Program-made: the position numbers and the translations under genes
NCBI RefSeq assembly: GCF_004010195.1
Contig: NC_057740.1
Location: 33,850,793-33,914,792, forward strand
Source of the DNA: Chiloscyllium plagiosum
Lineage: Eukaryota
DNA length: 64,000 nt
Reading direction: 5' to 3'
Notes under the pieces: generated by a model
Databases searched by the model: none
What the model was told of the DNA's origin: nothing
Seen by the model: only the letters and a program-made list of their open reading frames with translations
In this document: in pieces, positions 1 through 61,440 of the stretch
Layout of the letters: each line of letters starts with the position of its first letter
Numbering within the stretch: the stretch's first letter is position 1

Positions 1-180
1 GTCCCTCCTCCCTATCTTTTATCTTCTCCTGCTGAACACTTTCTGCTCATTCCTGAAGAAGGGCATGTGCCCGAAACGTCGAATCTTCTGTTCCCTAGAT
101 GCTGCCTGACCTGCTGTGCTGTTCCAGCAATAAAGTTTCAGCTTTGATCTCCAGCGTCTGCAGACCTCACTTTCTCCTCC
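1..180 (+). mobile_element. Penelope-like element terminal (pLTR) repeat, family A, with hammerhead motif
   Basis: CTGAAGAAGGGC..GCCCGAAACGTCG followed by GATGCTGCCTGACCTGCTGTGC..CCAGC..CTCACTTTCTCCT; the same module recurs at 17.1, 18.8, 23.6, 24.1, 31.6, 59.3 and 60.9 kb. Confidence 0.8.
49..84 (+). ncRNA. Minimal type-I hammerhead ribozyme motif (structurally intact)
   Basis: Stem I ATTC(49-52)/GAAT(81-84); core CTGAAGA(53-59)+extra A; stem II GGGC-ATGT-GCCC(61-72); GAAA(73-76); palindromic ACGT mini stem III; predicted cut after GTC (80). Confidence 0.8.
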
Positions 181-1650
181 TGAAATAAACTGCCTTACTC
201 ACTTAGAGGAGTCTTGCGTTTGGCATTGGCATTCCTGATGCTGTTTTAGCCTCCCCACAAGGTCCAAAAAGATTAGATGTAACCTGGTATGGAGTCTTCT
301 CCTGATTGGCAACTCTGCTGGAGCTGTCCCAATGGTTACATCACAGGTGATCCTATAATCGAATAGGAACCAGGACATTTTGGTATTGAGTGAAGCTGTA
401 GGCTGTTTCCGTAAGCCTGCATTCAAAGTTTGGACTGCTCTTTCTGCCAAACCATTGGACGATAGATGGTACGGAGCTGTCCTTACAGGCCGAATGTCAC
501 TCAACTTTAGAAAATACTCAAACTCCCTGCTGGCAAATGATGGCCTGTTGTCTGTGACCAACACCTCTGTGTATGCAAAAGATACCGGCAACTTTTCTAT
601 CATGATCCCTCTGTTTTTCGAATGAACTCTACACATGTCCAACCACACTGAATGTGTAATCGAGTCCAGGGTTACCTGGCCATTGCCATGAATATGAGCA
701 TCCATTTCCTGGCAACCAGACATAACTTCTCACCAACATCTTCACTTCAGAAAAGCTTGGATGACCCTGGTGGAGTTCAGCCTGTATCTGGCCAGAAGAT
801 CATCTGAATATTTAATTAGGATTTCAGTCAGACAGCCATTTTGTAATTGAAAAATGTTGAGCCAATCAAGTTGAATCTTTCTCAACAATTTCTCCCATCA
901 TACTTGGGCCTGAGTCTTTTACTACAATCAGCTGCTTCTGATAAGAGACCGGAAGCAGAGTTGTACCATTAATCTGTAAAGGTTGTCCGGCATAGGTTCT
1001 CAGCCTGGCCAAGGTCTGACACAAACTTAAGGTTTGGAGTCTCGAGTGAATTTTGGTCAAGACTGGTTCTGCAATCACTAATACAGCTGTGCCAGTACTG
1101 ACCTCCATTAGAACTAGGTCACCATTTAATCAGACCTTTATTTTGATTGGTTCTGATTTGGATGTTGCTAAGCAATATAACTTCTTCCACACCAACTGTA
1201 GGTGGACTTTCCAGGGTGTGCGCTCTCCTGGAATCTGACCTATAAGTTCTATTACTTAATTCAGGCCTAGTGGGACATTTCTGTCGTCTTGAGTTTGCTC
1301 ACCAGCAGCAACTAAAATAGCCTGCTGGCCCGGATCCTTGAGAAAACTTTAACTGTTTGGCTGAGGCTTGGCTTTGTTTTGAGGTTTTGCTCTGGACTGA
1401 CCTAGAGTTCTTCTGTTCAGGATATGTCCTGAGTGAGGCAATGCAATTTCCTTCACTCAAGTGGTGTTCCCCAAGCTCAGTTGGCCTGGCAAAGGTGTCC
1501 AGTACCGTTAGAATGCCTTATAACTCATAAGTACCAATTGCAGCATTTTCTAATGGCAAAATCAGTTGTAGCGCCTGTTGATGTCTAGTTGGGCTTCAAC
1601 GAGTAGGTGCTTTTGAATGGTCGCATTATTAATTCCACTCTCGTCCCCAC
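181..1650 (-). mobile_element. Internally deleted Ty3/Gypsy element body (gag fragment, protease, integrase; no RT/RNase H)
   Basis: Integrase core 'VTDN..FASREF...RTAPYH.SSNGLAERAVQTL' (199-723); integrase zinc-binding region 'ELHQGHPSFSEVKMLVRSYVWLPG' (~705-780); protease-like 'MEVSTGTAV..LRTYAGQPL' (866-1108); gag-like 'GINNATIQKHLLVEAQL' (~1585-1636); PBS-like GTGGGGACGAG next to LTR. Confidence 0.85.
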
Positions 1651-1885
1651 TGAAATAATTCCACGAAGGCCAGTATCCTGTCACTAAGTTGCCCTTTATT
1701 TACATGTGCATAATACATATCATTGACCCAGTTAGCTCAGAGCTGCCTCCTAGTGTGAACAGAACCCCTGACATTCCTATTTATATCTGTCAGCCAGGCT
1801 CCCTGATAGAGCCAGGTTAACAGCCCCATTCAGGGAGCTCCTATTTTAGGCGGTCCACCTAGCCGACTTTGTTCCAATCTCTACA
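1651..1885 (-). mobile_element. 5' LTR of the Gypsy element at 181-1650
   Basis: On - strand starts TGTAG, ends TTCA, contains AATAAA (1695-1700) and is followed directly by a TGGCGACGAG-like PBS. Confidence 0.7.
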
Positions 1886-2129
1886 GTGTGTGAAGGCAAT
1901 TTTTTAACTGAGCCAAAATCTTTAAACTCCTACTGATTTGAGAGGCAAGGTGTCAGCTGCGCTTTGCAAAGGAAAATGTGTAGAATGTTGAGCAGAACCA
2001 TCTACTGGCTGGAGATGGAACTGACATTTTAAAATAAAGTATGCATGGGCATGTTTGAAAATAAGCTCGACACTTGCTGCTGATAGGCTATAAAGTCCCA
2101 TTCTTAATACAGATAACACTCTTGCACCA

Positions 2130-2560
2130 CATTATAACTGGATAAATACAGAAGGCTTAATTGCCCTCGAGTCCAAATAGCGTGATAATTAATTGGAGAA
2201 AATTAAAGCAGGCTTTTGAAGATGGTAATGGACAAGTGTGAAGAATATTTCACATCACAAAATAAAATTACCTGTAAAAGACAAGTGTTTAAATCTAGTG
2301 GTGTTTCTCCAGAAGAAAGAATTGATTTGTATGGTATAATTGAGTTTTCAATGAAAAGTCAATTCTTGAATGAATTCCATTGTGGACAGCTTTATTACAG
2401 ATAATAATATAGTCATAATAACGAGTGTAAAGTCTAATAAATATAAGTTCAGCTGTCTGATGTTTTTGAAGTGGCCACGTTACAAATTTGTGTGTCATAT
2501 TTGGGATACACTTGAATTTCCCTGGGTGATTTGAGAAGGATAAATTGGCATCTCTACAAG
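2130..2560 (+). mobile_element. Ancient Gypsy gag remnant
   Basis: ORF 2216-2404 'VMDKCEEYFTSQNKITCKRQVF' resembles the gag motif 'VLxKFEEYCxPKKNxTxERxxF'; heavily decayed. Confidence 0.4.
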
Positions 2561-3380
2561 CAAATGCATCCACTCAGATATAATGATGTATATGAGACTG
2601 AATAGAGCCACCCAGTGGTCAGATGGGATGGAAGTTTTGTATTTGTATTTGTATGAAACGCACAATCATGTGTTCTGAGGCATGAGTTCATATTTTACAT
2701 GCTTCATGAAGTATCCTGGGAGTGATTAAGGTAGACAACAGACCAAACAATAGATAAGCAGGAGTTTGCATGAGAGGATGAAAGCTGCAGGGAAGAAACA
2801 GATTAGTGGTTTGAAATATTAGTAGTAGAACAATCATATAGAAATGTGCACATTCTTGTCTTCAGAAACATAAAACTAGATATGATTACCCCAGTTTTAT
2901 TCCGGTGTGATGATGTGTTGTTTTTTGACTGTATAGCAGAATTTGTTTCTTCAATCTAAAATGGAATAAAAACTTAGTGAATTAACTTCTGTGCTTTTAA
3001 ACAAGGCATTGTCACAAATCTGTAACTTGTAAAACCTCAGTTTTGAAGCATATTCGTCACTACAAAACAGAACGAGGTCTTAATTGGGCAATCTCAAGAA
3101 TGGATGCAGGAATTAGGATGTACATTAATTCCATGTGCATTGAAGGTCACACAGGCAGCACACTGATTTTGGACTGCCTGCTTATTTGAATAATTCCTTC
3201 ATGCAGCAAGTGCTAAATGCACAGTCCACTGGCTACATTTATCCACAGGGTGGCCAAGGTCAGAACATCCTGGATTTTTAAGGTGAGTCTTTACTGTTGA
3301 AATCTGGCCTTGATCAAAAGGTGCACTGTAGCTGCAGCAGATACTGTCAGCCCAGTAAAGATTGAATCTGAAACAAACAT

Positions 3381-3830
3381 GTTCTGAAGAAGATTGATAC
3401 CGGACTCAAAATGTTAACTCTTGTTTCTCTCTCCACAGATCCTGCCAGACCTGCTCTAAGTATTCTTAGATTCCATACAGTGTGGAAATAGGCCCTTCAG
3501 CCCAACAAGTCCACACCGACCCTCCAAAGAGCAACCCACCCAGACCCATTTCCCTCTGACTAATGCACCGAACACTACGGGCAATTTAGCATGGGCAATT
3601 CACCTAACCTGCACATCTTTGGATTGTGGGAAGAAACCGGAGCACCTGGAGGAAACTCACGCAGACACGGGGAGAATATGCAAACTCCACACAGACAGCT
3701 ATCTGAGCTGGGAATTGAACCCGGGTCCCTGGCACTGTGAGGCAGCAGTACTGACCACTGAGCCACCGTGCTGCCCCTTCTCTATGTTTGTTTCAGATGT
3801 CCAGCAACCGCTACACTTTGTTTTTATAAA
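3381..3830 (+). mobile_element. Penelope-like terminal fragment (family B, decayed hammerhead) split by an HE1 SINE
   Basis: GTTCTGAAGAAG...CTCAAAATGTTAAC, CTCCACAGATCCTGCCAGACCTGCT; resumes after the SINE at ~3778 (TTTCAGATGTCCAGCA). Confidence 0.6.
3466..3777 (-). mobile_element. HE1-type V-SINE
   Basis: tRNA head GGCAGCACGGTGGCTCAGTGG..GGGACCCGGGTTCAATTCC, V-domain GTTTCCTCCAGGTGCTCCGGTTTC..CCAAAGATGTGCAGG, CR1/HER1-type tail. Confidence 0.9.
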
Positions 3831-4064
3831 AATTGAAACTGATCTGGGGAAAGGAGTAGTTTAGGAGATATCAGGGTACAAAGTTTTTGAATGTTGCATT
3901 GGAGGAGCAGCTGGGAAGGTTCCTTCATCTGTCGAGTGTCAGGAATCACGCTAGGCACGCAGTCAAAGGCAAAGATTGTAGATATCTGCAGAAGTCAATG
4001 CCAGCAGTTAAACCTCAATCAGATGTAGTGCCAGAAGCAGTTCAGTAATCTTATCTGTGTCATT

Positions 4065-4330
4065 ATGGCCTATTCTTAATTGCCCACAGCACAGTAAAGA
4101 GCCAACCACATTGCTATGGGTTTGGAGTCACAAAGACTAGGCAAGAATAGCATTTTTCTTCCCTAAAAGGCATTAATGAACCAGATAGATTTTTCCTGAC
4201 AATGGTTTCACAATTATCATTAAATTCTTAATTCCAGATTTTTTTTAGTGAATTCAAATTCTAGAAACTGCCATGGCAGGATTCAAACTAGCTCCCCAGA
4301 ATGTTATCTGGGTCTCTGGATTAACACCGT
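4065..4330 (-). mobile_element. tRNA-headed SINE, second family (name not assigned); other copies at 19415-19715(-), 50350-51020(+), 52860-53030(-), 55440-55790(-)
   Basis: Shared motifs CACATTGCTATGGGTCTGGAGTCAC, TTCCCTAAAGGACATTAGTGAACCAGA, GAATTCAAATTCCACCATCTGCC and a B-box-like GGATTCGAACC. Confidence 0.7.
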
Positions 4331-7775: not shown

Positions 7776-7789
7776 ATGAGCTGCGAAGC

Positions 7790-8859: not shown

Positions 8860-9560
8860 AGGGAGCAACTGGTTTGGTCAGAAACTTTGAAGAATGCAGA
8901 GAAGTGTAAAGTGATACATTCTGGAAGAAAGTCCAAGGAAAGGCAACATAAAAGAAATGTTCAATTTTTGAAAGGGGATTCAGGAACACAGAAACTTCAG
9001 GTATAAGTGCATATGTTTGTAGCCTAAACCTAATTCCAATGTTTGCCCATGGTATTGAAATTGGCCGGACAGTTTATGAGAGAGTTTCTGATAGCATTCT
9101 CTGGACTTTATATATAGAGGCACAGAGAAAGTTTATAAAACACTGGTTTGGCCTCAACTGGACTATTGTGTCCAATTAACAAAGACATAAATTGCTGATG
9201 AAACTCTGAAGAAGGGTCATTAGATTTGAAATGTTAGCTCTGCTTTGTCTCCACAGATGCTGGCAGACCTATTGAGTTTCTCTAGCAGTTTCAGATTTCC
9301 ACCATTACAGATCTTTGTTTTATTTTCCTTTTTTGTGGCAACAAGTTAGAATCTGGAATGTACTGCCTGAAAGCATTGATAGGGCAAATTATATCTTTAT
9401 TCTTGAAAGAGAATTGGATAAGAACCATCAACAAATAAAAACCCAGGGTCACAAGAACGGTGGTGGAGTAGGAGTAACTGTATTTTTTCTTGTATGGAAC
9501 CTATACAGGTGATCTGGGCTGAATGTCCTTGTTCTTTGATGTGTGATCATTCTGTGGTAT
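8860..9560 (+). mobile_element. Old CR1 LINE 3' fragment interrupted by a Penelope-like piece (9185-9325)
   Basis: 'NAEKCKVIHSG', TATAAAACACTGGTTTGGCCTCAACTGGACTATTGTGT (YK.LVRP.LEYC), 'VRIWNVLPE'; insert has CTGAAGAAGGGTC-ATTA-GATTTGAAATG. Confidence 0.7.
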
Positions 9561-16380: not shown

Positions 16381-16960
16381 GGGGCAGCACGGTGGCTGGA
16401 TGGTTAGCACTGCTCCCTCACAGTGCCAGGGACCCGGGTTCATTCCCACCTCGAGCAACTGTTTGTGTGGAGTTTGCACATTGTCCCCGTGTCTGTGTGG
16501 GTTTCCTCCGGCCATGCTAAATTGCCCATAGTACTAGGTGCATTAATCAGGGGGAATGGGTCTGCACTTCGGAGGGTCGGTGTGGACTTAGATTTAAATT
16601 AGATTACAGTGTGGAATCAGGCCCTTCGGCCCAACAATTCCACACCAACCCGCCGAAGCAAAACCCACCCCTACCCCTACATTTACCCCTTACCTAACAC
16701 TACAGGCAATTTAGTATGGCCAATTCACCTGACCCTGCACATCTTTGGATGGTGGGAGGAAACCGGAGCACCCGGAGGAAACCCACGCAGACACGGGGAG
16801 AACGTGCAAACTCCACACAGTCAGTCGCCTGAGGCGGGAATTGAACCCGGGTCTCTGGCGCTGTGAGGCAGCAGTGCTAACCACTGTGCCACCGTGCCTC
16901 CCACTTGTTGGACTGAAGGGCCTGTTTTCACACTGAAGGGAATCTAAACTCATCTAACCT
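16381..16960 (+). mobile_element. HE1 V-SINE (internally deleted) with a second HE1 inserted antisense (16590-16902)
   Basis: Outer head GGGGCAGCACGGTGG at 16381; tail resumes at 16903; ACTT duplicated at 16586-16589 and 16903-16906. Confidence 0.9.
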
Positions 16961-17124: not shown

Positions 17125-17257
17125 TGGAGATAGTGAGGACTGCAGAGGCTGGAAAGTCAGGGCCAATAAAATGTGGAGCCGGAAAAAGTGCAGCAGATCA
17201 AGCAGCGTTAGAGGAGCAGGAGAATCGACATTTCAGGCAGGACCATTCATCAGGACT
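17125..17257 (-). mobile_element. Penelope-like terminal repeat, family A (decayed hammerhead)
   Basis: GTGAGGACTGCAGA..CAGCAGATCAAGCAGC..AATCGACATTTCAGGC..TTCATCAGG. Confidence 0.7.
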
Positions 17258-17679
17258 ATTTCATGGTGTTATTTCTGCCCTGACCAATGATGACTCATCC
17301 CATATGCTTCTCACCTCATTATCCATGCAAGCAAAATGTTGGCCATCTTAATTCATTGAATCACATGGTGAACAAGGCTGAAGTGCTTGCCACTGTCAGG
17401 ACATTATAACTACTGTGCCTCTGGAATCATATTTAAAACCCAGTGGGTCACCACTTTTAACACTGCAAGCTAGAACTACCACTCACACTATTTGCTCACT
17501 TCGAAACTATGAGTAGATGGCACAAAAGAAAAGTTAGGATTGGTCCCCACTTCAAGGAGAAAAATCTTGAGGTGCTAATTGACAAAGGGAGGTCAGTCTT
17601 CTTCCCAGTTCACCACAACAAGCGGCAACCCCTTAAGATGTGTGAATAGTTTTGCTCCCCTTGTCCAAGGTAAGATATA

Positions 17680-18160: not shown

Positions 18161-18816
18161 TGCTTCCAACTTGGACAGAGAGAGCAGCATGAATCAATGC
18201 TACGTCCGCCATCAAAAGGGAAGGCCAGTAGTGCCTCGGATAAGTCAATGGCCTATTGTGCTCCACAAGGCCACCATCTTCTCCCTGCTACCTCAGACTC
18301 AAAAGGCCATTCACTCATGCTAACTTTGTCATTGCACAAAACATCTCATCACGGGTAATAGCATCACCCATCACATGCAAAATGGCCCCTAAAGGGCTCA
18401 CACCTTTACAACAACTAACTTCCTTCCGCTGTTCCTGTTCACTCACTGGGGACACCTCACCACCTCTTGGGTTTATATATGTTCACTAACTGTAATCTAC
18501 TCAATTCTTCTCGTTCTCTCATTGCAGGAAGAAAATGGTCCACAACCAGACTGAGAGGTCCAAGACTGGAGGGGAGGCGGCAGCCTTCAGGTTCCTTCCT
18601 CCCAATGAGGATAAGATGATTGTGTTGGTTGGGAGATCAAAACTGCTCATGTGTTAAAGGGCAGACACCAATGGGCAACTAACCCAGTCAGCTCCTTTGT
18701 GTTGTGCTCCTTTCTGATTACCAGCGATGCTAACTCACTCTTCTGCATAAGCTTTTATCCATTTTCTCCAAATAACTTCCTTTCCTGTTTTAAGCAGGCA
18801 CTTGTGACATCTGGAG

Positions 18817-19003
18817 CTGAAAAATGTGTTGCTGGAAAAGCGCAGCCGGTCAGGCAGCATCCAAGGAGCAGGAATCTGAAGAAGGGCTAATGCCTGAAAC
18901 GTCGATTCTACTGCTCCTTGGGTACTGCCTGACCTGCTGCGCTTTTCCAGCAACACATTTTTCAGCTCTGATCTCCAGCATCTGCAGTCCTCACTTTCTC
19001 CTT
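18817..19003 (+). mobile_element. Fold-back Penelope-like insertion with hammerhead core in the loop
   Basis: ~60-bp inverted arms around CTGAAGA-A-GGGC-TAAT-GCCT-GAAA-CGTC (18876-18903); TSD CTTG(T/C)GACATCT(G/A)GAG at 18801-18816 and 19004-19019. Confidence 0.85.
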
Positions 19004-23560: not shown

Positions 23561-23773
23561 GCGAAAGTGAGGACTGTAGATGCTGGAGATCAGAATCAAG
23601 ATTAGTGTGGTGCTGGAAAAGCATAACAGGTCAGGCAGCATCAGAGGAGCAGGAAAATCGATGTTTCGGACAGGAGCCCTGATGAAGGGCTTTTGCCTGA
23701 AATGTCGATTTTACTGCTCCTTGGATGCTGCCTGACCTGCTGTGCTTTTCCAGCACCACTCTAATCTTGGTTC
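23561..23773. mobile_element. Fold-back Penelope-like insertion with hammerhead core
   Basis: ~85-bp inverted arms; CTGATGA-A-GGGC-TTTT-GCCT-GAAA-TGTC at 23679-23706; TSD TGATGTTTTA(T/C)AT(A/G)G at 23546-23560 and 23774-23788. Confidence 0.85.
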
Positions 23774-24065
23774 TGATGTTTTACATGGCATTCTGGATTA
23801 TTGGTTGATACTCATCATTAGGAACATCTTTACAACAGGCATTTAAGCTTTGCTGTGTGATGTAGAAAGAGCTATGAAAATGTAATGAGATACCACTGGG
23901 TATCAATGGCCATTTTGCATTGTGTTCTTCTCTAGAGATTCCAATAATTTTCTTTACTGGGATGTTAATTGCCCTTTAAATGTATACATGTGTCCATCTT
24001 GTATAGAATTTGTTAGGGAAGTCCTGAGCCCAGGCAAAGATTCTGGTGGGAGCTCATCCAGTTTC

Positions 24066-24246
24066 GAGAGTGTAGTGCTAGAAAAGCACAGCAGGTCAGG
24101 CAGCATCCGAAGAACAGGAGAATCAATGTTTCAGGCATATGAAACGTCGATTCTCCTGCCCCTCGGATGCTGCCTGACCTGCTGAGCTTTTCCAGCACCA
24201 CACTATTGACTCTGATCTCCAGCATCTGCAGTCCTCACTTTCTCCT
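24066..24246. mobile_element. Fold-back Penelope-like insertion (hammerhead core truncated at apex)
   Basis: Inverted arms meeting at TTTCAGGCATATGAAACG; TSD AGCTCAT(T)CCAGTTTC at 24051-24065 and 24247-24262. Confidence 0.85.
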
Positions 24247-25981: not shown

Positions 25982-26437
25982 TAATACAAATGGTTAATTT
26001 TATACATTCTATACCCATTAATTCATCAAATGTTTCTTTGAAAGTCCAGTTAAAGATGAAAGTCACCAACAGTTTTGTTAAATGCTTTGATTATACATTT
26101 TTATCTTTGTCTAGAGATATTATACAACTTTTTTTTAGTCATACCTACCTAAATAAATACAATGATGTAATTTATCAAGATTGTCGAAGGTCTTATCACA
26201 ATTTCTGGGGCTTGAGTAGGTCAACAATTATAAAGCACAAGATAATACTGAATCAATTGGACCTTTTTCTGATCGTGACCTCAGTATTTCTGTCTGCTTC
26301 TACCCCAACTTTACACTTTTGCTGCTGGAACTCTCACCGCCTCTTCTGACTAGCCTCCCAGCTCAAAACTCTTGGTCCTACCAAATACTGTTGACTCTCA
26401 TCAAATCCTCTGTGCTTGCTGATCTACATTGACTATG

Positions 26438-26730
26438 TTAAAAATCACATAAAACCAGGTTATAGTCCAATAGGTTTATTTGGAAGTAGTAGCTTTTGAA
26501 GCGCTGCTCTTTCATCAGGTAGCTAGTAGAGTAGGATCACAAAACACAGGATTTATAGCACAAGATCATAGTGTCATGCAACTGATACAATATATTGAAC
26601 AAACCTAGATTGCTGTTAAGTCTATCATCTTTTAGAATGGGTTGCAAGTTTTGATTCATTAATATGTAAATCCAGAACTTCTTTCAAGTCACATTCTCAA
26701 GATACCTTAAGGTTTTATAAAAAAACCCGG
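26438..26730 (-). mobile_element. Penelope-like terminal repeat, family C (decayed hammerhead)
   Basis: Minus strand ACCTGATGA-A-AGAGC-AGC-GCTTC-AAAA-GCTA (26488-26521) followed by AATAAACCTATTGGACTATAACCTGGT. Confidence 0.65.
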
Positions 26731-31560: not shown

Positions 31561-31692
31561 AGGCAAAAGCGAGGACTGCAGATGCCGGAAACCAGAGTTT
31601 AGATCAGAGTGGTGCTGGAAAAGCACAACAGGTCAGGCAGCATCCGAAGAGCAGGTAAATTGACATTTCAGGCAAAAGCCCTTCATCAGGAA
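31561..31692 (-). mobile_element. Penelope-like terminal repeat, family A, with hammerhead core
   Basis: Minus strand TTCCTGATGA-A-GGGC-TTTT-GCCT-GAAA-TGTC. Confidence 0.8.
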
Positions 31693-32479
31693 CCCCTTAC
31701 ACAACCATTAGAAATGTCCTGGGTTTCCTCCCAAATACAGTTTAATGGTGCATTTCACTGACATAACACCGGCTGTGTTCAATCCATTTTGAAAAGAGGG
31801 GTCAAATTGCTTTGGAAAATAGTCCACTCCAAAAAAAACAGTGCACTAACTGCAGCTGAAATGGGAGAAGTTCTCATGCACTTGCATCCCATTTTGACCA
31901 GTAGCCAATAGCCAGCTGGCAAGGATTCAGCAGATCTCAGGCACCATGACAGTAAGTCAAGTGACAATTCACCTTCCTGGGGAAACTAACAACATTGCAG
32001 TGATGAAGCCAAAAAAAAACGCTAGGCCTTGGCATTGCTGGCTGCAAAAGATAGCTGTAGCAATCAAAAACAGTGAGTCAACTGCAAGAAATGTCTGGCA
32101 TGACCATGCCTAAATGTGTCATAACTGAGAGGAACTACAATCAAGAAACAAAAAGAAAATCATATTGCTCAATAACTTTACAGTCCACATGGAGGATACA
32201 AAGGGGTGAGTTCTGTATTTAACAGGCTGAGTTAGCAATTATTTAGCCCGGGACTTCAGTTCTTGACAGCATTGATCTCTAGAGAAAACATGATTAAAGA
32301 AAATCTGTTGATGGTGTTTATTGTGTCAATGGTAGAAGTAATATTGGGTCCAGGGAAGTTTTTCTATTATAATAGACCATCTTTTAAAACAAAGGCTATC
32401 AAAAGAAAACAGGAAATTAATGCAACGATTTTGAAATTGTAGAATTGGTAATTTGGCCTATAATGTCCGCGAAACACTG

Positions 32480-33590: not shown

Positions 33591-34319
33591 CAGAAAATCT
33601 CACTTAATTCTCCCAACCTGCTTTCTCTAAGGCCTCGATTCAATTTCCCAACTTTTCTGTTTCTGCTACATTTACTCTGACCATCTTATTGTCCACACGA
33701 GTACTTTTAATAATATGAATGTGACTTTTAACTTAACTTCCCATTTCATCAACAAAAGCTTGACCCCACAGTGACCTCAAACGTATCCGGTCGGTTTCCC
33801 GAAAGTTATGACAAGAGACCATCGATCTGAAGTCTTAGCTCTGTTCCTGTGCCACAGAAATGCTGCTTGACTTTAGTATTTCCAGCATTTCCTACTTTTA
33901 TTTCATATTTTGACCGATACTATTTCCTTCTCATTAGGAAGGATTGTCCTGATTTAACTCATGTCGGGGGATTGGGACAATATTGTGCAACTACAGAGCT
34001 TTTATTTTAATTCTAGTGATTATCTTGAATAATTTTCTAAGATTTGTGTTGCATCTCCTCCTGTGTAATGTGAGGCAGCCATTATCCAGACTTCTCCTTA
34101 TAACTAATGCATGGGAGCAGCATAAGTCTGTCTATTAATTTGCTTACTTTCTTATTTTGGTCAAGTCACCATATTACAGCAGATCCACCGGTATTTTCGA
34201 AAGGTGTATGGATTGTAAGACCGAGGAAGTCAAACGCCCACTACAAAACAGATGTGTGTCTTGGTTTCATCTGGCTTGGATTCTATTAATATTGGTAGAG
34301 AGGTTGGATTACTAATGCC

Positions 34320-35417: not shown

Positions 35418-36457
35418 TTCCCAAGATGGTGATGGAATAGGATGCTTCAGCTGGAGCTGGACCACTCTGCTCATTCTTCTTGTTTTTCTTCTCTTTTACT
35501 CACTTCTTTGTTTTGTTTTATTCTTCTCTCCTGGCCTCCGGTCAGCTCCTGGCCTCAAGTGTGACTCCAGGACTCCGGTTCAAGTCTTGACCTCCAGTTT
35601 GACTCCAGGCCCTCCCAGCCTGGTATAGTGGCCTCCTAGCCTGGTATAGTGGTCTCCCAGCCTGGTATAGCGGTCTCCCAGCCTGGTATAGCGGCCTCCT
35701 AGCCTGGTATAGTGGCCTCCTAGCCTGGTATAGCGGCCTCCTAGCCTGGTATAGCGGCCTCCTAGCCTGGTATAGCGGCCTCCCAGCCTGGTATAGCGGC
35801 CTCCTAGCCTGGTATAGCGGCCTCCTAGCCTGGTATAGTGGCCTCCTAGCCTGGTATAGCGGTCTCCCAGCCTGGTATAGTGGTCTCCCAGCCTGGTATA
35901 GTGGTCTCCCAGCCTGGTATAGTGTTCTCCCAGCCTGGTATAGCGGTCTCCCAGCCTGGTATAGCGGTCTCCCAGCCTGGTATAGCGGTCTCCTAGCCTG
36001 GTATAGCGGTCTCCCAGCCTGGTATAGTGGTCTCCCAGCCTGGTATAGCAGCCTCCTAGCCTGGTATAGCGGTCTCCCAGCCTGGTATAGTGGTCTCCCA
36101 GCCTGGTTTAGTGGTCTCCCAGCCTGGTATAGCGGTCTCCCAGCCTGGTATAGCGGTCTCCCAGCCTGATATAGCGGCCTTCCAGCCTGGTATAGCAGCC
36201 TCCTAGCCTGGTATAGCGGCCTCCTAGCCTGGTATAGCAGCCTCCCAGCCTGGTATAGTGGCTTCCCAGCCTGGAAGACCACTCTTCTGAACATTTTATT
36301 TCTCTATTTTCAGAGATCTTGTAACTGAAGAAGATGTACCTGGGTACCTTTGTATCTAAGATGTGCTGTAAGTAGCAATGTATAAACTTTTTACTGTACT
36401 CATTTGAGTACATATGACAATAAAGTTATTCAATTCAGTTCAAATCAATTCAATTCA
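35418..36457 (+). mobile_element. Non-autonomous retroposon enclosing the minisatellite
   Basis: 5' CCCAAGATGG start; 3' TACTGTACTCATTTGAGTACATATGACAATAAA+(TTCAA)n tail resembles the Rex1-type tail at 28975-29030. Confidence 0.5.
35619..36269. repeat. 21-bp minisatellite, 31 units, consensus CCTGGTATAGYGGYCTCCYAG
   Basis: Units in exact 21-nt phase from 35619 to 36249 with no net indel; produces the (RPLYQAG/R)n ORF. Confidence 0.95.
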
Positions 36458-37275: not shown

Positions 37276-37765
37276 AGGAACTTCTGATGATAAGCTGAGA
37301 GAGGTAGGATGTTAATGAAAAATATAAATGTTCAATAATGGGTTGATAATTATTAAACTCAATGTCGAGTTTTGAAGGTGTAAGAGGCCCAGGCAGAAAA
37401 AGAGGGTTGTTCCCCCAACTTGCATTGAGCCTTGCTGGAGCACTGCAGTAAGAGAGAGAAACGGAGAGGCGAGAAAGGAACTTCTGATGATAAGCTGAGA
37501 GAGGTAGGATGTTAATGAAAAATATAAATGTTCAATAATGGGTTGATAATTATTAAACTCAATGTCGAGTTTTGAAGGTGTAAGAGGCCCAGGCAGAAAA
37601 AGAGGGTTGTTCCCCCAACTTGCATTGAGCCTTGCTGGAGCACTGCAGTAAACCAGAGAAAGAAATGTTGGGATGGAAACAGAGTAGCATAGTTCTCCTC
37701 TGGAAAAGTAACCCCAAGCTTCCAGTTGCCTTCAGTCCAAACACCATTGTGTTCCCATGCCAATA
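37276..37765 (-). mobile_element. Penelope-like GIY-YIG endonuclease C-terminal remnant (partly duplicated)
   Basis: 'SGLLQCSSKAQCKLGEQ' (ORF 37559-37747) then LNIEFNN-like CTCGACATTGAGTTTAATAAT. Confidence 0.6.
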
Positions 37766-39753
37766 TTTCTATCTCTGATCTACTGCACTGAGGAACATTG
37801 GACAGTATTCACATCTTTTTTAATGAATAAAAATAGATACTTGGTGATCAATTTGTTATATTCATCATAAAACCATGCAATGACATCTAATGAAGAATAC
37901 AGCATTAAAAGACTTGGCACCAACCACAAAATCATATATCCGCCTTAATAATATACATTAGAGCCAAGTTAACGTGTGGCATTTTAATTGGCTTTACCAG
38001 AATGTGAAAAACAAAATAGGAATTAAATAGCCTGAAACTTTAACTAAGGAGTATTTTGTTCCCAACTATGTACACATGTACATATATACATTGGCAGCAG
38101 GACGAGTTCCCAGTTACTTTCTTAGTTAATGTTTAACATGCTGTGAAAATGCAAGCATGTGGTACTCTGCAATATATATCTTAAAAGACTTCTTACCATA
38201 CATTTTGGATGTCTTGCAGGAAGTTGTAAACTCTGTAATCTGTACATCCATAGTGTGAAATCCGTTCTAATTAGTAGAAATCCTATTTTCTTTCTCTTTG
38301 TGCCTGTTGCAAGTGTAGGGTTGGTTAAGCTGTTTGAAGAAGCCAGAATCTCTCTCCATCTCTGACTGAAGGAGTTTGCAATATATCATTTACAGTAACT
38401 TATCTACAATTCTTTGAGGAGATCACATATCTCTTTCTCCAAATGGTCCCAACTGTCATGACTAATTGAACAAGAGAGTGTAAAGCAGAGATTAAACCCA
38501 GTAAAGATCCAGTCATTGACCGTGGGTACTTTAGCAATTGAGCCATTTCAGCTATGTGTTCAGTTGTCTAACACTGACACAATAAATCCTCCCAGTCAGA
38601 TCCCCCAATGAGATCATCAGCTGTCACTGTTTAAACAAATGGAATCCCAAAATAAACAGAAGTAGAAAGCTAAAACAGAAACCTAAGAGGAAATCAAAAT
38701 CATTCTGACTGCTTTCACAGAATTATGTGGGGAAAATCCTGCTGCAGTGTTTGGACTATTTTGTGTAACATTAGGGATGAACTTTTAAATCCAAATATGC
38801 AGCAGCACAAAAAGACTCATTAACATATTCAAAAAAGTTTTTCTTTCTACCAGCATTTTCTCCTGAAGAATTCATGCCAATGGAGTAAGATTCTATAGAT
38901 GCTGGTCAGCTTCTGTCTCTTTGCTCATATCCAAGACAGAACAAATGATTCAAGTTCTCGGTGAGTTCATCTGGTATGCTATCATACCTCCATGTTATCA
39001 AAAATTATCTTCACGGCTTGAGCTGCAAGAGAAGGCTTACATGTTGATGTCCATAACTGAATCATGGAGATATGCAGGCCTTCTTAAAGGAACAATGACA
39101 TTTTACTAGTTAGGTCCAAAACAGAGACATTATCTGATAGAAACACAGGAACAGTAATAGGTCATTCAGCCCCTTGTGTCTGTTTCACCTTTTAAAGAGA
39201 TCACGGCCTAACTCCAGATACCTGCCTCTGGCCCATATCTCCTCATCATTTCTTTCTGAAAATAACAGTTTGAGGCACAGTAGTGATTAAGAAGACATAT
39301 GGGATACCTACCTTTATTAGCCAAGACATAAAACTTAAGAGCAGTGAGGTTATACTGGAATTGTATGCAGTTCTGGATTCCACATTTTAGATGCCGTGTG
39401 ATTGTGCTGGAGAGGGTGCAGAGGAGATTCACAGGGATTTTAACTAGGCTGGACAGTTTTAGTCATGAAGAGAGATTGGACAGACTTGGGGTGGTGGGGG
39501 GGAGCGGGGAGACATGATGGAGATATATAAAGTCATGAGGAGCCCAGATAGGGTAGTCAGGAAGAGACTTTTACCCTTGATGGGGGGATCAGTGAGCGGG
39601 ATCATAGGATTATGTAAGGTGCAAGATGTTCAGAGGAGATGTGAGGAAAAGTTTTTTCACCCACAGGGTGGTGGGGAATCTGGAATTCAAATCCTTAAAG
39701 TGTGGTAGAGGCAGAAACTCTCTCAATGTTTGAGAAGTATTTAGATGTGTACT

Positions 39754-42700
39754 TAGAGTTATAGAGTTACAGAGCTGTACAGCATGGAAACAGACTCTTT
39801 GTCTAATTCGTCCATGCTGACCAGATATACAAAATAAACCTAGTCCCATTTGCCAGCATTTAGCCTTTGTATTCATATACCCGTCCAGATGCCTTTTAAA
39901 TACTGTAATTGTACCAGCCTTCACCACTTCCTCTGACAGCTTATTCCATACATGCACCACCCTCTGTGTGAAAGATTTGTCCCTTTTAAATCTTTCTCTT
40001 CTCATCTTAAACATATGCCCTCTAGTTTTGGACTCCCCTACCCTTGGGAAAAGACCTTGATGATTCACCCTCTCCGTGCTCCTCATGATTTTATAAATCT
40101 CTATGAGGTCACCCCTCAGACTCCGAACCTCCAGAGAAAATAACCCCAGCCTATTCAGCATCTCTGTATAGCTCAAACACTCCAACTCTTGTAAATCTTT
40201 TCTGAACACTTTCAAGTTAAACAATATCCTTCCTACAGAAGGGAGACCAGAATTGCATGCAGTATTCCAAAAGTGGCCGAACCAATATCCTGTACAGCCA
40301 CAACATGACCTCCCAATTCCGAACGTCAATGTACTGACCAATAAAAGCCAGCATACCAAACACCTTCTTCACTATCCTGTCTACCTGGGACTCCACTTTC
40401 AAGGAACTATGAACCTGCACTCCAAGGTCTCTTTGTTCAGCAACACCTCCCAGGAACTTTCCATTAAGTGTCGAAGTCCTGCTCTGATTTGCCTTTCCAA
40501 AATGCAATAGCTCACATTTATCTCAATTAAACTCTGTCTGCCACTCCTTGGCCCATCGGCCCATCTGATCAAGATCTCATTGTACTCTGAGGTAATCTTC
40601 TTTGCTCTCCACTATACCTCCAATTTTGGTGTCATCTACAAACTTACAAACCATATCTCTATGTTCACATCCAAATCATTTATATCACTTATGAAAAGAA
40701 GTGGGCCCAGCATGATCCTTGTGGTACACTGCTGGTCAGAGGCCTCCAGTCTGCAAAGAAACCCTCTACCACCACCCTCGGTCTTCTACCTTTGAGCCAG
40801 TTCTGTATCCAAATGGCTATTTCTCTCCATATTCCATGTGATCTAGCCTTGCTAACCAGTCTATCACAACGACCCTTGTTGAACACCTGAAGTATGTAAA
40901 GATCACGTTCACCACTCTGCCCTCATCAATCCTCTCCATTACTTCTTCAAAAAACTCAAGTTAGTGAGACACCATTTCCCACTAACAAAACCATGTTGAC
41001 TATCCCTAATCAGTCTTTGCCCTTCTAAGTACATGTAAATCCTGTCCTTCAGGAGTTCCTCCAACAAATTGTCCACCACTGATGTCAGGCTCACTGGTCT
41101 ATAGTTCCCTGGCTTTTCCTTACCACCTTTCTTCAATCGTGGCACCAAGTTCGGCAACCTCCAGACTTCCAGCACCACACCTGTGATTATCAATGATGCA
41201 AATATCTTAGCAGGGGGCAATCAATCACTTCCCTAGCTTCCCACAAAGTTCTAGAGTATACCTGATGCGCTCCTGGAGATATATCCATCTTTATGTTTTA
41301 AGATGTCTAGCGCCTCCTTTTTTCTAATAAGGACATTTTTCAACATGTTGCTATTTATTTCCCCACATTCTCTATCTTCCACAGTCTTCTCCACAGTAAA
41401 CACTGATGCAAAATACTCATTTGGTATCTCCCTATCTCCTGTGGTTCCACACATCGGTGGAGTTGATAATCTTTGACGGGCCTTATTCTCTCCTGAGTTA
41501 TTCTTTTGTCATTAATGTATTTGATTAATCCCTTTGGATTCTCCTTAACCTTATTTGCCAAAGCTATCTCATGTCCCCTTTTTGCCCTCCTGACTTCTCT
41601 TTTAAGTATACTCCTACTGTCTTTATACTCTTCTCGGGAATCACTTGATTCCTGCTGTCTATACCTGACATATGCTTCCTTCTTATTCTTGATCAAAACC
41701 CCAATTTCTCTAGTCACCTAGCATTTCCCACACCTACCAGCCTTGCCCCTCATTCTTTCCATTTTCCAGCTGTCCCTTTATCTGCAAACCTTTTGGAACA
41801 GTGGGGCAGCACGGTGGCAGTGGGGCCGCATGGTGGTGCAGTGGTTAGCACTGCTGCCTCACAGCACCATGGACCTGGGCTCAATTCCAGCCTCAGGTGA
41901 CTGTCTGTGTGGAGTTTGCACATTCTGCCTGTGTCTGCATGGTTTTCCTCTGGTTGTTCGGGTTTCCTCCCACAGTCCAAACATGTGCAGGTTAGGTTAA
42001 TTGGTTAATAAATTGTCCACAGTGTTCAAGGATGTGCAGGTTAGGTACATTAGTCAGGGGTAAAAATAGAGTAGAGGGGGAATGGGTCTGGGTAGGTTAC
42101 TATTTGGAGGGCCGGTGTGGACGTGCTGGGCCGAATGGCCTGTTTCCTTACCATAGGGATTCTATGATACTGCCTCTGGACTCTAGTTATCTCATTTTTG
42201 AAAGCTTTCCATTTTCAGCTGTCCCTTTATCTGTGAACTTTTGAAAGTTTTTACCTAATATCAAAACTGGCCTTTCTCCAATTTAGACCTTTAACTTTTA
42301 GATCCAATCTATCCCTTTCCATCACTATTTTAAAACTAATAGAATTGGTCACTGGCACCAAAGTGCTCCCCCAAAGACACCACAGTCACCGACCCTGCCT
42401 AATTTCCCAAGAGTAGTTCAAGTTTTGCACCTTCTCTAGTAAGTACATTGACATACTGAACCAGAAAATTTTCTTATACACACTGAACAAATTCCTGTCC
42501 ATCCAAGCCCTTAACACTATGGCAGTTCAATCTATGTTTGCGAAGTTAAAATCCCTTACTATAACCACCCTATTATTCTTACAGATAACTGAGGTGTCCT
42601 TACAAATCTGTTTCTCAATTTCTGGCTGACTATTGGGGGGGTCTATAATGCAATCCCAAAAAGGTGATCATCCTTTTCTGATTTCTCAGTTCTACCCAAA

Positions 42701-47569: not shown

Positions 47570-48360
47570 AGTCAGAAAGTTGTAAGTTCAAGGCACACTC
47601 CAGGTACTTGTCTGTAGTAAAGATTGGCACTTTTGTATCACATTTACAAGGTGTGGACTGTCAAAGGTGCTGCCTTATTGCTAAGCCCATATATTTCCCA
47701 CTCACATCAACATAAAAGATCCTAAGTTACTAGCAAGTTTTGAGAAGATTTGTAGCTCAGGTTGAGGTTCTGAATGTAGGTTTGTTCGATGAGCTGGAAG
47801 GTTCATTTTCAGATGTTTCATCACCATACTAGGTAACATCATCGGTGAGCCTCCAGATAATTCCTAGAAGCATGGCATTCTAACAGGAACCCTATCAACA
47901 AACACATTGACTTGAATCCCATTTACCACCTCCTGAGAAAAAGAACAGGAAATGACATCACCAACCCAAGGAAACCTAAACGTACAAATAGAAAGCAGGC
48001 CATGCCACCATTGCTTCATCCGGACGTTCACCGATGATGTTACCTAGTATGGTGACGAAACATCTGAAAACGAACCTTCCAGCTCAGCGAGCAAACCTGC
48101 ATCCAGATCCTAAGGTAATTCCCAAAAAAGGTCAACAGAACTCTTCTTGGTGTTCTGGTTAACTTTTAACCTTGATCAATTGTACTAATACAGGTTAATT
48201 AGTCATTATTACATTGGTGGTCTTGTGGGATCGTGCTGTGCAGATTTTTGATTGCTCTGCTTTTTAAAATGAAAAAAAGACAGTGATCACACTTCAAAAG
48301 TACTTCACTGATTTTAAAGTGCTTTCCGATGTCCAGAGGTCTAGAAATGCAAATTGTTTT
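47570..48360 (+). mobile_element. DeuSINE/AmnSINE1-like SINE interrupted by a Penelope-like insertion
   Basis: TGTGGGATCGTGCTGTGC..CAGTGATCACACTTCAAAAGTACTTCACTG..AAAGTGCTTT..AAATGCAA. Confidence 0.55.
47727..48104 (+). mobile_element. Penelope-like 3' end (family D) with inverted pLTR, two hammerhead cores and GIY-YIG tail
   Basis: 'FLEAWHSNRNPINKHIDLNPIYHLLRKR' (~47861-47945); arms ~47770-47857 vs ~48018-48106 inverted; TSD AGATCCTAAG at 47717-26 and 48105-14. Confidence 0.85.
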
Positions 48361-52792: not shown

Positions 52793-53114
52793 ATCTTAGC
52801 TGCTGCAGTCGGCAGCTGATGTTCAATGATATTTTTATGGGACTATTTTGGATAGTGATAGGTTCCTTTCCTGAAGGCAATAGTGAACTAATCTAATGAT
52901 AAAGTAACAGCCATGTGGTGACTTTTACTCATACCAACTGTGTACTTCAAATCTCAAATTACCATGGTCGTAACAAAACTGCCATCCAGATTATTATGCC
53001 AGCTTTGTGGTTTACTTGTCCAGTAAAATACGTCTCTACGATACCTTATCTGATTTTAAATCGTAAGTATGTTTCAAATCAGTTTTCAAGATAACAGACA
53101 GACAGTAAAATATA

Positions 53115-53285
53115 TTCAGAAATTGGTGGAAAAGTTCAGCAGGTGTGGCAGCATCCATGGAGGAAAGCAGAGTTAATGTTTCAGGTCCAGTGACCCTTCT
53201 TCAGAACCAAAAACTCTGCTGGGTTTTTCCAGCAATTTCTGATTTTGTGTCTGGTTTCCAATATTTGCAATCTTTGTTTTTTTTA
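53115..53285 (-). mobile_element. Penelope-like terminal repeat, family B, with hammerhead core
   Basis: Minus strand GTT-CTGAAGA-A-GGGTC-ACTG-GACCT-GAAA-CATT-AAC (53172-53207). Confidence 0.75.
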
Positions 53286-53379
53286 AGCAAACATATTCAC
53301 TGTTTTGACTTGTATTTCCATCAACAGGATTGTGGCATTAACTATTGTTACTTTAGCCATTTAGTCACATAATTCCGTG

Positions 53380-57361: not shown

Positions 57362-58395
57362 CTTAAGACCATAAGACCATAAAAAAATTGGAATAAGTGT
57401 AGGCCATTCAGCCTCTCGCACCTGTTCTGCCATTCAACATGATTATGGCTGATCTGACTTTCCTCATATCCACTTTCCTGGCCTTTTCCCATCACTCTTG
57501 ATTCCCCTACTAATCAAGAATTTAGCGATCTCAGTCTTAAATATATACAAAGACTATGCCCTCACAGCTCTCTGTGGCAAGGAGTTCCAAAGGATTACAA
57601 CCTCTAAGAAAATAAATTCTTCATCCTCTCAGTCTTAAATTGATGCCCCTTTATTCTGAGATTATGCCTTCTGGTCCTACACTCTCCCATGAGGTGAAAC
57701 ATTCTCTTAGCATTTACCCTGTCAAGCCCTTTAAATATCCAAAATATTTCAATGAGATCACCTCTCTTTCTTCTAAACTCCAATGAGTAGAGTCTCTTTG
57801 CTCATAAAACAACCTCTCCATGCCTAGTGATCATCCTATGGACTTTCTCTGAACTGCCTCCGATGAAATGATATCTTTCCTTAAATAAGGGGACCAAAAC
57901 TGTTCAGAGTAGTCCAGATGTGGTCTCATCAGCATCCTGTACAGACACAGTAAGACTTGTCTACACTTATATACAACTTCCTTGAAATAAGGACCAACAT
58001 TCCATTAGCCTTCCTGATAACTTGCTGTGCCCGTGTGCTAGCTTTCTGTGTCTCATGTACAGATCCCTTTGTGTTGCAGCTTTCTGCAGTCTTTCTAAGT
58101 AATATTTAAATAATAAAGGTTTAGAGGGATATGTGCCAAACGCTGGCAAAAGGGACTGGCTTAGTTTAGGAAACTTGGTCAGCAGGAATGAGTTTGGCTG
58201 AGGACCTGTTTCTTCTGTATACCCTTATGACTCTATTCTGTTCTTTTGTTGTCCCTTCCAAAATGAACAACTTTGCAATTTCCCACATTATACTCTATTA
58301 TGCTCCAACTTGTTGCCCACTTCCTTAACCTATCAATATCTCTGTAAATTGTTTGTGTTCCTCTCAAATATGTGCCTTGCCAATTATTTTAGTGT
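57362..58395 (-). mobile_element. CR1 3' part with nested sense CR1 tail (58105-58235 +)
   Basis: TAAGACCATAAGACCATA tail; same subfamily as 11620-13330. Confidence 0.85.
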
Positions 58396-58429
58396 CAGGA
58401 GACTTGGACTGCCTCTTTTTAAAAAGATC

Positions 58430-59215
58430 TATAAGACCATAAGACATAGGAGTGGAAGTAAGGCCATTCGGCCCATCGAGTCCACTCTGCCATTCAATCA
58501 TGGCTGATGGGCGTTTCAACTCCACTTACCCTCATTCTCCCCGTAGCCCTTAATTCCTTGTGATATCAAGAATTTATCAATCTCTGCCTTGAAGACATTT
58601 AGCGTCCCGGCCTCCACTGCACTCTGCGGCAATGACTTCCAAAGGCCCACCACTCTCTGGCTGAAGAAATGTCTCCGCATTTCTGTTCTGAATTGACCCC
58701 CTCTAATTCTAAGGCTGTGTCCACGGGTCCTAGTCTCCTCGCCTAACGGAAACAATTTCCTAGCATCCACCCTTTCCAAGCCATTTATTACCTTGTAAGT
58801 TTCTATTAGATCTCCCCTTAATCTTCTAAACCCCAATGAATACAATCCCAGGATCATCAGCCGTTCCTCGTACGTTAGACCTACCATTCCAGGGACCATC
58901 CGTGTGAATCTCCTCTGACACGCTCCAGTGCCAGCATGTCCTTCCTGAGGTGTGGGGACCAAAACTGGACACAGTACTCCAAATGGAGCCTAACCAGAGC
59001 TTTATAAAGTCTCAGTAGCACAACGGTGCTTTTATATTCCAACCCTCTTGAGATAAGTGACAACATTGCATTCGCTTTCTTAATCACGGATTCAATCTGC
59101 ATGTTTACCTTTAGAGAATCCTCGACTAGCACTCCCAGATCCCTTTGTACTTTGGCTTTACGAATTTTCTCACCGTTTAGAAAGTAGTCCATGCTTGTAT
59201 TCTTTTTCCCAAAGT
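58430..59215 (-). mobile_element. Young 5'-truncated CR1
   Basis: ORFs 58881-59192 and 58516-58962 give an almost uninterrupted ORF2 C-terminus ('QRDLGVLV..LVRLHLEYCVQFWSPHLRKD','RRHFFSQRVVGLWKSLP'); CpGs retained. Confidence 0.93.
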
Positions 59216-59296
59216 GACCAAGTTACAAGCCAATCAGTACGTGGTGAAGTCACAGATGGTTTTCCCCTGAAATCAAAATACCAAGTGTGATGTCTT

Positions 59297-59426
59297 AGGC
59301 ATGTGAGGACTGCAGATGCTGGAGATGAGAGTCTAGATTAGAGTGGTGCTGTAAAAGCACAGCAGGTCAGACAGCATCCGAGGAGCAGGAAAATCGACAT
59401 TTTGGACGAAAGCCCTTCATCAGGAA
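59297..59426 (-). mobile_element. Penelope-like terminal repeat, family A, single arm
   Basis: Minus strand ATTCCTGATGAAGGGC-TTTC-GTCC-AAAATGTC; perfect 11-bp TSD TGTGATGTCTT at 59286-96 and 59427-37. Confidence 0.85.
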
Positions 59427-59454
59427 TGTGATGTCTTGCCTACTGATAATCCCT

Positions 59455-59645
59455 GCATGGTTAGCTGGATGGCTTGTGATATAGAGTGACACCAACAGCA
59501 TGGATTCAATTCCTGCACTGGCTGATGTCACCAAGAATGTCTTGCCTTCTCAACCTCTCTTTGCCTGAGGGATGGTGATCCTCAGGTTAAACTCAATCTC
59601 TGTAATGCGAGATGAGCCCTATGGTCCTCTAGGTCTCTGGTGACG
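59455..59645 (+). mobile_element. Old tRNA-derived SINE (unclassified)
   Basis: B-box-like GGATTCAATTCC; CTGAGGGATGGTGATCCTCAGG hairpin. Confidence 0.45.
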
Positions 59646-60761
59646 ATTATTTATCCAAGCACTTCTAGCAAATCAGTGGTGGCAGTTCCTGTGCACAATA
59701 GTGACACTGGAGTGACCATGACTACTAGTGGAAGGACAGGCTCAGGGTTTCAGAATGATAGAACGACCCAGGCAATAGGTAGTTTATGTGTGTGGTTGGG
59801 TGGAGTTCACAGAGTGGGGCTTCACAAATAAGGGCAGGGGCAGGACAGAGTAGCCCTTAGTGGGGTCCATTTCCTGATATTTGTGCCTGGCACTGAGTGT
59901 CTTTGATCAAGAGACACCACCACTCTGATCCCTCCCTCCATGCTGGGCCGAATGTGACAAACTGGCCACACAGTTACAGCAGTTGTGCAGACCATGCATG
60001 GCTGCTGCTGGGTTAATTCAGCAGCGTGAGATAAGGCCTATAAGAAGTTATTAATTGGCCAATTAAGGACCTCAATTGCAACAGAATGGAAGATCGACCT
60101 TTTGCTTTTCCCAGCCAGAACATAATTGTGAGTTCAGGCATGACCCCACCTTGTCTAATTAAATGCCCTTCCCACCTACAAGCTTGGCATCAATAACAGC
60201 AGGAGATGCTAATGGCATTGAATGTCAAATGAAGGTAGTTATGTTCTCTTATTGGAGTTGGCCATTGCCTGATACATGTCTATAATTTATAGTAGTATTT
60301 AGGGTAGTAATTATCATTTTTCATTCCAAGTCTGGATGTTGTCCAAGTCTGGCTGCACCGAGCATGGATTTTATTTTAATCTTGAGAACTATAAATGGAG
60401 CTGAACTGTATGCAATCATTGGTGAACAGCTCAAATTCTGACCTGTAGGATCTGCCAGATCTCTTCCCACAGTTGATGCCAGACCTGCTGAATTTTTTTA
60501 TATACAGTTCCAATTGTCATTTCAGCTTTGATCCAAACACAGACACAGAATGAACTCTGGGGCTGAGGTGAGAATGATTCCCTCCCTTACATCCAGGCAA
60601 TATTTCACTGAGTTTGGCAACAAGGGGCCTTAATGAAAGTAAAATTAATGATGATTGAGCAAAGGTTAATATGCAAATTGGGGCCATTTCAGCCCAGAAC
60701 TTTGCTGTTTTCCCTTTGATTAACGTTCTAGGGTTGACAATTATTACTACTACATCAGTCT

Positions 60762-61440
60762 TCCTTGCAGGTTATAAATTGGGCTGTTCACTGACTACAA
60801 CTCCATTTACAGTTCTTAAGAAACAGTCCATGCTCCTGTGCAGCAGTCCTGGACAACATCTAGGAGAAAGTGAGGACTGCAGATGCTGGAGATCAGAATA
60901 GAGAGTATGGTGCTGGAAAAGCACAGCAGGTCAGGCAGCCTCCGAGGAACAAGAGAATCAACATTTTGGCCATAAGCCTTTTCCTGTTTCATTCCTGATG
61001 AAGGGCCTATGCTTGAAACATTGATTCTCCTCCTCCTTGGATGCTGCCCAACTTGCTGTGCTTTTCCAGCACCATGCTCTCAACTCTGGACAACATCTAG
61101 GCTTAGAATGAAAAACAATATGTGCTATCCATGCTAGGCAAGTGTCAGGCAATGGCCAACTCTGAAAAGAGAACATAACTACCTTCATTTGACATTCAAA
61201 TGCCATTATCGTCATGGTGTCCCACATTATCATAATCCTAGAAGTTGCTATTGACCAGAAACTGACTAGAACCAACCAGATAAACATAATGCTTGATGAG
61301 GCTTGATTTTTTACAGCAACTGGCTAACTGGACTCTCATAGCTTCTACATCTCTCAAAGACACGTTAGTGTGATTGCATTGTCTCCGTTTACCTGGATGT
61401 CTGCAGTTCCAACATGAAGAGAGCTCAGTACTCTCCAGAT
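60762..61440 (+). mobile_element. Old CR1-group LINE RT fragment (inverted partner at 60210-60450)
   Basis: CTGGACAACATCTAGGCTT..CAAGTGTCAGGCAATG (KCQAM)..ATTGACCAGAAACTG (IDQKL). Confidence 0.65.
60865..61085. mobile_element. Fold-back Penelope-like insertion with hammerhead core
   Basis: ATTC-CTGATGA-A-GGGC-CTAT-GCTT-GAAA-CATT (60991-61022); ~75-bp inverted arms; perfect 16-bp TSD CTGGACAACATCTAGG at 60849-64 and 61086-101. Confidence 0.9.

Follow-up and report, generated by a model that had tools for sequence, protein, structure and literature searches.

We analysed 64,000 nucleotides of the shark Chiloscyllium plagiosum (contig NC_057740.1, positions 33,850,793 to 33,914,792; "the window" below is this whole stretch), in which a preliminary description made from the sequence had listed 13 hammerhead ribozyme frames. 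All 13 were found at their sites, on both strands (C3 positions in Table 1). We are close to certain that they belong to the minimal hammerhead class described from Penelope-like elements (PMC4209133; papers and preprints are cited here for those parts of them that were covered), and it is very probable that they are minimal type I hammerheads lying in the terminal repeats of three Penelope-like retrotransposon lineages. The motif class itself is already known, and the window copies are abundant, mostly decayed and 5'-truncated members of it.

Hammerhead motifs and their carrier elements

The frames stand out from shuffled sequence, a check that had been named beforehand. A strict descriptor (CTGANGA, one extra base, stem II paired 4/4, GAAA-NN-T-H) matched 7 times in the window and never in 12 dinucleotide shuffles, a small control. 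Allowing one mismatch gave 17 matches, compared to a shuffle mean of 3.1 and maximum of 8; these are the 13 named motifs and four more at 5042, 38863, 47726 and 57907, which fit no family profile and are at chance level. The core is unchanged in 8 of the 13 motifs and the palindrome after GAAA is kept in 3, and core, palindrome, stem I and stem II are all kept only at 53. The hammerhead is the minimum-energy fold for two motifs, 53204 and 53 (−8.4 kcal/mol for the latter, where the predicted cut falls after the GUC at 80). An Rfam covariance-model scan of the window returned no hammerhead family at E values up to 1, only weak microRNA matches on palindromes, as would be expected for minimal motifs. 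Most of the hammerhead repertoire is decayed, largely by CpG loss: CpG columns are changed in 12–48% of cases, affecting G12 and the palindrome.

In families A to D the commonest base at every core column gives CUGANGA...GAAA-NN-UH, with an extra base between A9 and G10.1 (A in families A–C, U in D) and G10.1-C11.1 as the commonest II.1 pair in all four. There is no helix III, and positions 15.2-16.2 are palindromic, GC in 24 of 26 C copies and CG or its CpG-decay products in A, B and D. Helix I is short, 3 bp in B, C and D with compensatory swaps and 4 bp in young A copies. The class of PMC4209133 likewise has no helix III beyond the palindrome, an extra base between 9 and 10.1, a short helix I, several covarying families per genome, a U3-A8 variant, mostly single copies, and opposite-strand pairs; stem II differs, with 4–6 bp here and 7–8 bp in Schistosoma (PMC4209133).

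The preliminary description had proposed four unrelated families, which must be revised: A and B share a downstream tail (74.7% over 83 nt, E ~1e-7), and the window therefore holds three lineages. Some of its family stems hold exactly at single sites only, GGGTC/GACCT at 53204 and TTCA/TGAA at 48027, and its CTGA frame does not apply to family D, where both motifs, at 47845 (−) and 48031 (+), read CCGATGA. These two are the arms of one head-to-head insertion, so the 13 motifs represent 12 insertions. At 48037–48111 the family D motif has an ATG where A9, the extra base and G10.1 fall, so that it likely doubles as a reading-frame start, as in the element of the anole (Anolis carolinensis). A fifth, Poseidon-like hammerhead family, with stem I GCA/UGC, was seen outside the window (L057:6803, L187:5246, L192:6884 and 7585).

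The Penelope connection drawn in the preliminary description is borne out by endonuclease or reverse transcriptase (RT) sequence upstream of copies of all four families. Of the core-spanning copies, 13/89 A, 4/40 B, 1/33 C and 4/12 D have Penelope-type protein sequence no more than 1.2 kb upstream in the same orientation. Broken frames in D and A carry RT motifs followed by GIY-YIG, for which Pfam scores 23.2 bits in A and 22.5 in D (cut-off 22.6); a genome search with the Pfam GIY-YIG model gave one weak match, which was not used. A CX4CXXC linker precedes GIY-YIG in young A copies, and family C has a decayed form only. The D insertion of the window contains the end of an endonuclease frame, and longer D copies carry RT motifs and GIY-YIG with no cysteine linker, which fits Penelope/Poseidon, while RT, linker and GIY-YIG in young A fit Neptune (PMC8557442). 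With clades assigned by motifs alone, A and B fit one Neptune-like lineage and D a Poseidon-like one; C, whose upstream protein matches the A probe at only ~30%, is probably a second Neptune-like lineage. The Neptune clade of Craig et al. 2021 (PMC8557442), by a likeness in motifs only, shares a C-terminal GIY-YIG, a CX2-5CxxC linker (family A), partial tandems, an inverted 5'-truncated arm and an optional tail.

A young subfamily includes the copy at 53, whose first 140–170 bases match 40 places at 95–100%, and the upstream coding stretch of young A matches 40 places at 98–100%. The sequence upstream of the window is N over the 900 bases viewed. We found tandem 286-nt repeats in 4 of the 29 young A loci; they sit 3'-terminally in coding elements, and no array longer than two units was found in the loci examined. 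Head-to-head pairs are frequent (80/189 A/B, 34/47 C and 8/13 D matches), and an inverted left arm is present in 36 of 114 sampled insertions. Partial tandems, an inverted 5' arm and an optional 30–40 base tail are traits of endonuclease-bearing (EN+) Penelope-like elements, and all are present.

Copy number, covariation and decay

Our sample comprised 79 blocks of 10 kb taken from large contigs, each placed at a round coordinate (764,717 called bases). A family profile search found 160 core-spanning copies, one per 4.8 kb, and the same density in the window (14 core-spanning matches in 64 kb); the window is thus typical, as the preliminary description had supposed, and its extrapolation to the genome from about one per 5 kb is supported. 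For 3.56 Gb it gives ~744,000 core-spanning copies (633,000–869,000, a Poisson-only interval). The sample also held 41 strict frames; in 29 of them the palindrome is accompanied by 2 or more base pairs of stem I, and in 12 by 3 bp. These three counts extrapolate to 191,000, 135,000 and 56,000. Exact whole-genome counts of core, stem II and palindrome together gave 79,576 for A and 16,311 for C (~96,000 in sum), and adding a 3-bp stem I left 12,132 and 12,343, at least 24,475 intact copies; reversed-pattern controls of these counts gave 0.

By comparison, PMC4209133 gives ~4,000 motifs for the coelacanth and ~9,000 for Xenopus, and PMC7229834 gives 126,247 type I motifs for the axolotl, similar in size to the counts here; the descriptors differ in each case. 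At ~54 strict motifs per Mb the shark would have the densest repertoire among comparable counts, a claim that we make jointly with the 5'-leader reading developed below and hold with even confidence. No paper on shark Penelope hammerheads and no shark-specific count came up in our literature search, which left most subscription papers outside; PMC6155905 and PMC7936874 have nothing on sharks in the parts covered, nor do two of the three supplements of PMC4209133 contain shark terms. Expanded Penelope-like elements are noted in a whale shark preprint, and a preprint by Li et al. 2026 (10.64898/2026.07.22.740005) reports Neptune and Poseidon elements in five vertebrate classes.

Two-sided pair swaps separate subfamilies in stem I of D (I.3, 10 UA and 7 CG), C (I.3, 19 CG and 4 UA) and B (I.2, 18 UA and 5 CG) and in stem II of A (II.2, 53 GC and 7 AU), and one B subfamily carries the U3/A8 double core change (L043:5964, L056:5589, L194:1279). 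The swaps go back to a few events that many copies then inherited, and p-values therefore overstate them; a further Poseidon-like family of the sample shows a third stem I pair. The covariation that the preliminary description attributed to selection on ribozyme structure is real between subfamilies, but selection on the genomic copies, in which the core diverges about as the tail does in families C and D, is not supported. Outside CpG sites, core and tail differ among copies at 18/260 (6.9%) and 76/1177 (6.5%) of positions in C (p 0.78), and at 11/179 (6.1%) and 18/494 (3.6%) in D (p 0.20; 18 of the 30 D loci were chosen on coding sequence alone). Because compensatory stem changes separate the subfamilies, selection likely acted on active parent elements and not on genomic copies. 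The window copies likely do nothing where they sit.

Insertion ends and the origin of the short copies

To a large extent the short copies have common ends. Among sampled core-spanning A–C copies, counted with one arm of each tight palindrome removed (114 insertions), 52 begin within 10 bases ahead of C3 and another 20 in the 25 bases adjoining that interval, while 41 start at more distant upstream points and a single one within the core. By family, the −10 to 0 interval holds 24/56 A, 17/32 B and 11/26 C starts, and the next 25 bases hold 9, 6 and 5. Family D stands outside this tally (8 copies, 5 of them from another family). Insertion ends at the cut site were considered as a sign of cleavage and rejected, with starts within 2 bases of it in 1/113 A and 0/59 B matches; a splice acceptor at the boundary was likewise discarded, as the commonest A form has no AG and there is no common upstream sequence. 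In long copies an AT-rich box precedes the boundary by ~30 bases; it reads TATAAAT in family C, CATAAAA in many copies of B and TTTTATC in A. At the other side, A copies end preferentially at +85 to +99 (18/56) and +125 to +139 (13/56). In RNA run X20 we aligned 985 reads, of which 89 diverge exactly at −4, four bases before C3.

These ends can be compared to the Poseidon element of the anole, whose protein initiates reverse transcription internally, at two sites, extends both strands and prefers uncut RNA, and whose hammerhead cuts only with the protein (Frangieh et al. 2024, PMC11167929). The two preferred 3' ends of family A resemble its two start sites. Families A–C are Neptune-like, unlike the anole element, and protein-assisted cleavage, demonstrated there, is a prediction here; the cluster of 5' ends at the motif edge is not described in the sections of PMC11167929 covered. 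We hypothesize that in families A–C the hammerhead forms the first ~35 bases of the RNA, transcribed from the TATA-like box ~30 bases upstream; a TATA box with an initiator-like sequence has been proposed for a rotifer element (PMC3846280). Reverse transcription would begin internally, either ~95 or ~135 bases downstream; a start on the first repeat would run to the RNA 5' end and leave stubs of 100–140 bases, and priming on both strands would join two stubs head to head. Stub formation of this kind could yield a very high copy number with no selection on the copies. With starts clustered before the core and almost none at the cut site, the template of the copies appears to have been uncut RNA, followed as far as its 5' end. 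In the active parent, self-cleavage would be weak and would need either a second copy, through ACGT/AGCT palindrome pairing, or the element's protein, by analogy with other Penelope-like elements. Folding of a natural tandem gave −44.0 kcal/mol for the dimer, −47.0 for two monomers and −54.8 for the free fold, energetic support for neither hammerhead form. We lean towards the 5' boundary being the transcript start in A–C. Our confidence is evenly balanced for the fuller reading, in which the hammerhead is the RNA 5' leader and the hundreds of thousands of stubs are run-off complementary DNAs of uncut RNA that map the start of transcription.

Several results count against parts of this picture. 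The box of family A, TTTTATC, is not a canonical TATA, and the 5'-end tally is restricted to core-spanning copies, in which alignment ends can overshoot by chance. The RNA reads run in both orientations and are mostly 90–95% alike, which points to copies inside other transcripts and not to the element's own start; most likely they come from genomic copies within host transcripts and confirm the boundary, not the start site. The same run showed no site with many molecule ends and none piled up at the cut site. The RT stretch had no Pfam match, and no intact full-length open reading frame or young element was recovered, the longer copies running into N. The commonest A form has a stem I of 2 bp plus a U-U mismatch (40/65). 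Finally, outside CpG sites family A shows less divergence in the core than in the tail (34/649, 5.2%, against 215/2563, 8.4%; p 0.007), a comparison biased by a profile trained on copies with perfect cores, and the B core is more diverged (15% against 9.1%; p 0.006), partly owing to the U3/A8 subfamily.

The alternative that bears most closely on the transcript start, and on that step only, keeps the elements Penelope-like and attributes the 5' boundary to stalling of the RT, to template jumping or to self-priming on an antisense template. Self-priming of this sort has been proposed for head-to-head Penelope structures (PMC3846280), and the promoter of Drosophila Penelope is internal and TATA-less (PMC2377424). 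However, a stall at the fold would be expected on its 3' side and not just past its 5' side, an AT-rich box stands ~30 bases ahead of the boundary in each of three families whose upstream sequences differ, and the short copies share no exon-like upstream sequence; we regard this explanation as possible yet rather doubtful.

Two other explanations concern the copies as a whole. The short copies might be non-autonomous, retrozyme- or SINE-like (short interspersed nuclear element-like) units that replicate themselves and use the hammerhead to cut and circularise. They are indeed very common and share ends, the 286-nt tandems include units with two intact motifs, and retrozymes derived from Penelope repeats are reported from one cartilaginous fish (10.64898/2026.07.22.740005). 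Type I hammerheads in Penelope-derived repeats are also what the non-LTR (long terminal repeat) retrozymes have in common with our copies (Cervera and De la Pena 2020, PMC7229834; Li et al. 2026). Retrozymes, however, form tandem arrays, in the axolotl with canonical motifs and circular RNAs (PMC7229834), whereas the window copies are dispersed, minimal and single or head-to-head, and the window has no tandem units that each carry a hammerhead. The short copies lack the upstream TATA-like box and start before the core, whereas the junction of a cut or circular unit would lie at the cut site, and two units remain the longest array seen in the loci examined, which makes this origin very unlikely. 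Still less credible is that a share of the copies is kept by selection as host ribozymes cutting pre-mRNA. The copies exact for core, stem II, palindrome and 3-bp stem I, their transcription in at least one RNA run and the lower divergence of the A core could be taken that way. Yet the intact copies sit in young subfamilies with 98–100% identical relatives, C and D cores decay like their tails, reads do not accumulate at the cut site, and published assays of single minimal motifs saw no cleavage (PMC4209133).

Feature coordinates and implications

Table 1. Hammerhead-bearing insertions and associated features of the window, with C3 of each core
Feature	Positions	Strand	C3	Remarks
3' end of young family A (Neptune-like) pseudo-LTR, running off the window start	1–190	+		1–170 recurs elsewhere at 95–100% identity, in two copies at 100%; relatives follow a GIY-YIG frame
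TATA-like TTTTATC	17–23	+		31–32 bases before the A at 49, where short family copies start; putative promoter
Sole fully intact minimal hammerhead	49–84	+	53	stem I ATTC/GAAT, extra A, stem II GGGC/GCCC, palindrome ACGT
Family B short copy	3378–3482	+	3384	G12 changed, stem II weakened
Family B short copy	9201–9300	+	9206	palindrome decayed; start ~4 bases before core
Family A short copy	17159–17258	−	17253	stem II shortened
Family A head-to-head insertion	18810–18973	+	18876	palindrome kept; stem I lost at junction
Family A head-to-head insertion	23588–23777	+	23679
Family A head-to-head insertion, absent from the preliminary description	24059–24216			first half of core missing in both arms
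Family C copy, long upstream part	26427–26718	−	26518	G12 changed, stem I broken, palindrome AGCT; TATAAAT at 26557–26551
Family A short copy	31591–31693	−	31689
Family D (Poseidon-like) 5'-truncated insertion with inverted arm	47741–48111	+	47845 (−), 48031 (+)	both CCGATGA
C-terminal end of family D GIY-YIG frame (FLEAWHSN...INKHIDLNPIY)	47861–47944	+		longer copies carry GIY-YIG start and RT motifs
Family B copy with short inverted arm	53111–53242	−	53204	stems I and II kept; palindrome decayed
Family A short copy	59326–59429	−	59423	G12 changed
Family A head-to-head insertion	60893–61088	+	60995

The profile search of the window also returned two weak, heavily decayed B-like remnants (33807–33898 and 60458–60511). 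Elsewhere in the window there is a minisatellite at 35611–36274 (21-base unit, 31.6 copies, 93% matches, several frames open) and an exact 200-base tandem duplication at 37276–37651, which adjoins an N run and may be an assembly artefact. An open frame at 199–729 (−) resembles an LTR-retrotransposon integrase fragment, and those at 39610–40368 and 58516–58989 (−) resemble the 3' ends of CR1/L2-type long interspersed nuclear elements; nested inverted repeats at 16433–16935 look SINE-like. Parts of two head-to-head insertions, 23620–23745 and 24085–24188, give weak Rfam microRNA matches (mir-671, E 0.0013, below the gathering score).

Head-to-head copies would form long hairpins when transcribed; they already yield false microRNA matches and could mislead microRNA annotation. 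The role of the hammerhead in Penelope-like elements is still open (PMC8557442, PMC11167929). The shark genome provides natural tandem repeats of a young family in which the motifs are intact, together with natural compensatory variants that include U3/A8, and a very large record of insertion ends that would mean that uncut RNA is usually the template copied. If the hammerhead is indeed a 5' leader, the tandem repeats of the young family would allow a direct test of what cleavage does in Penelope transposition.

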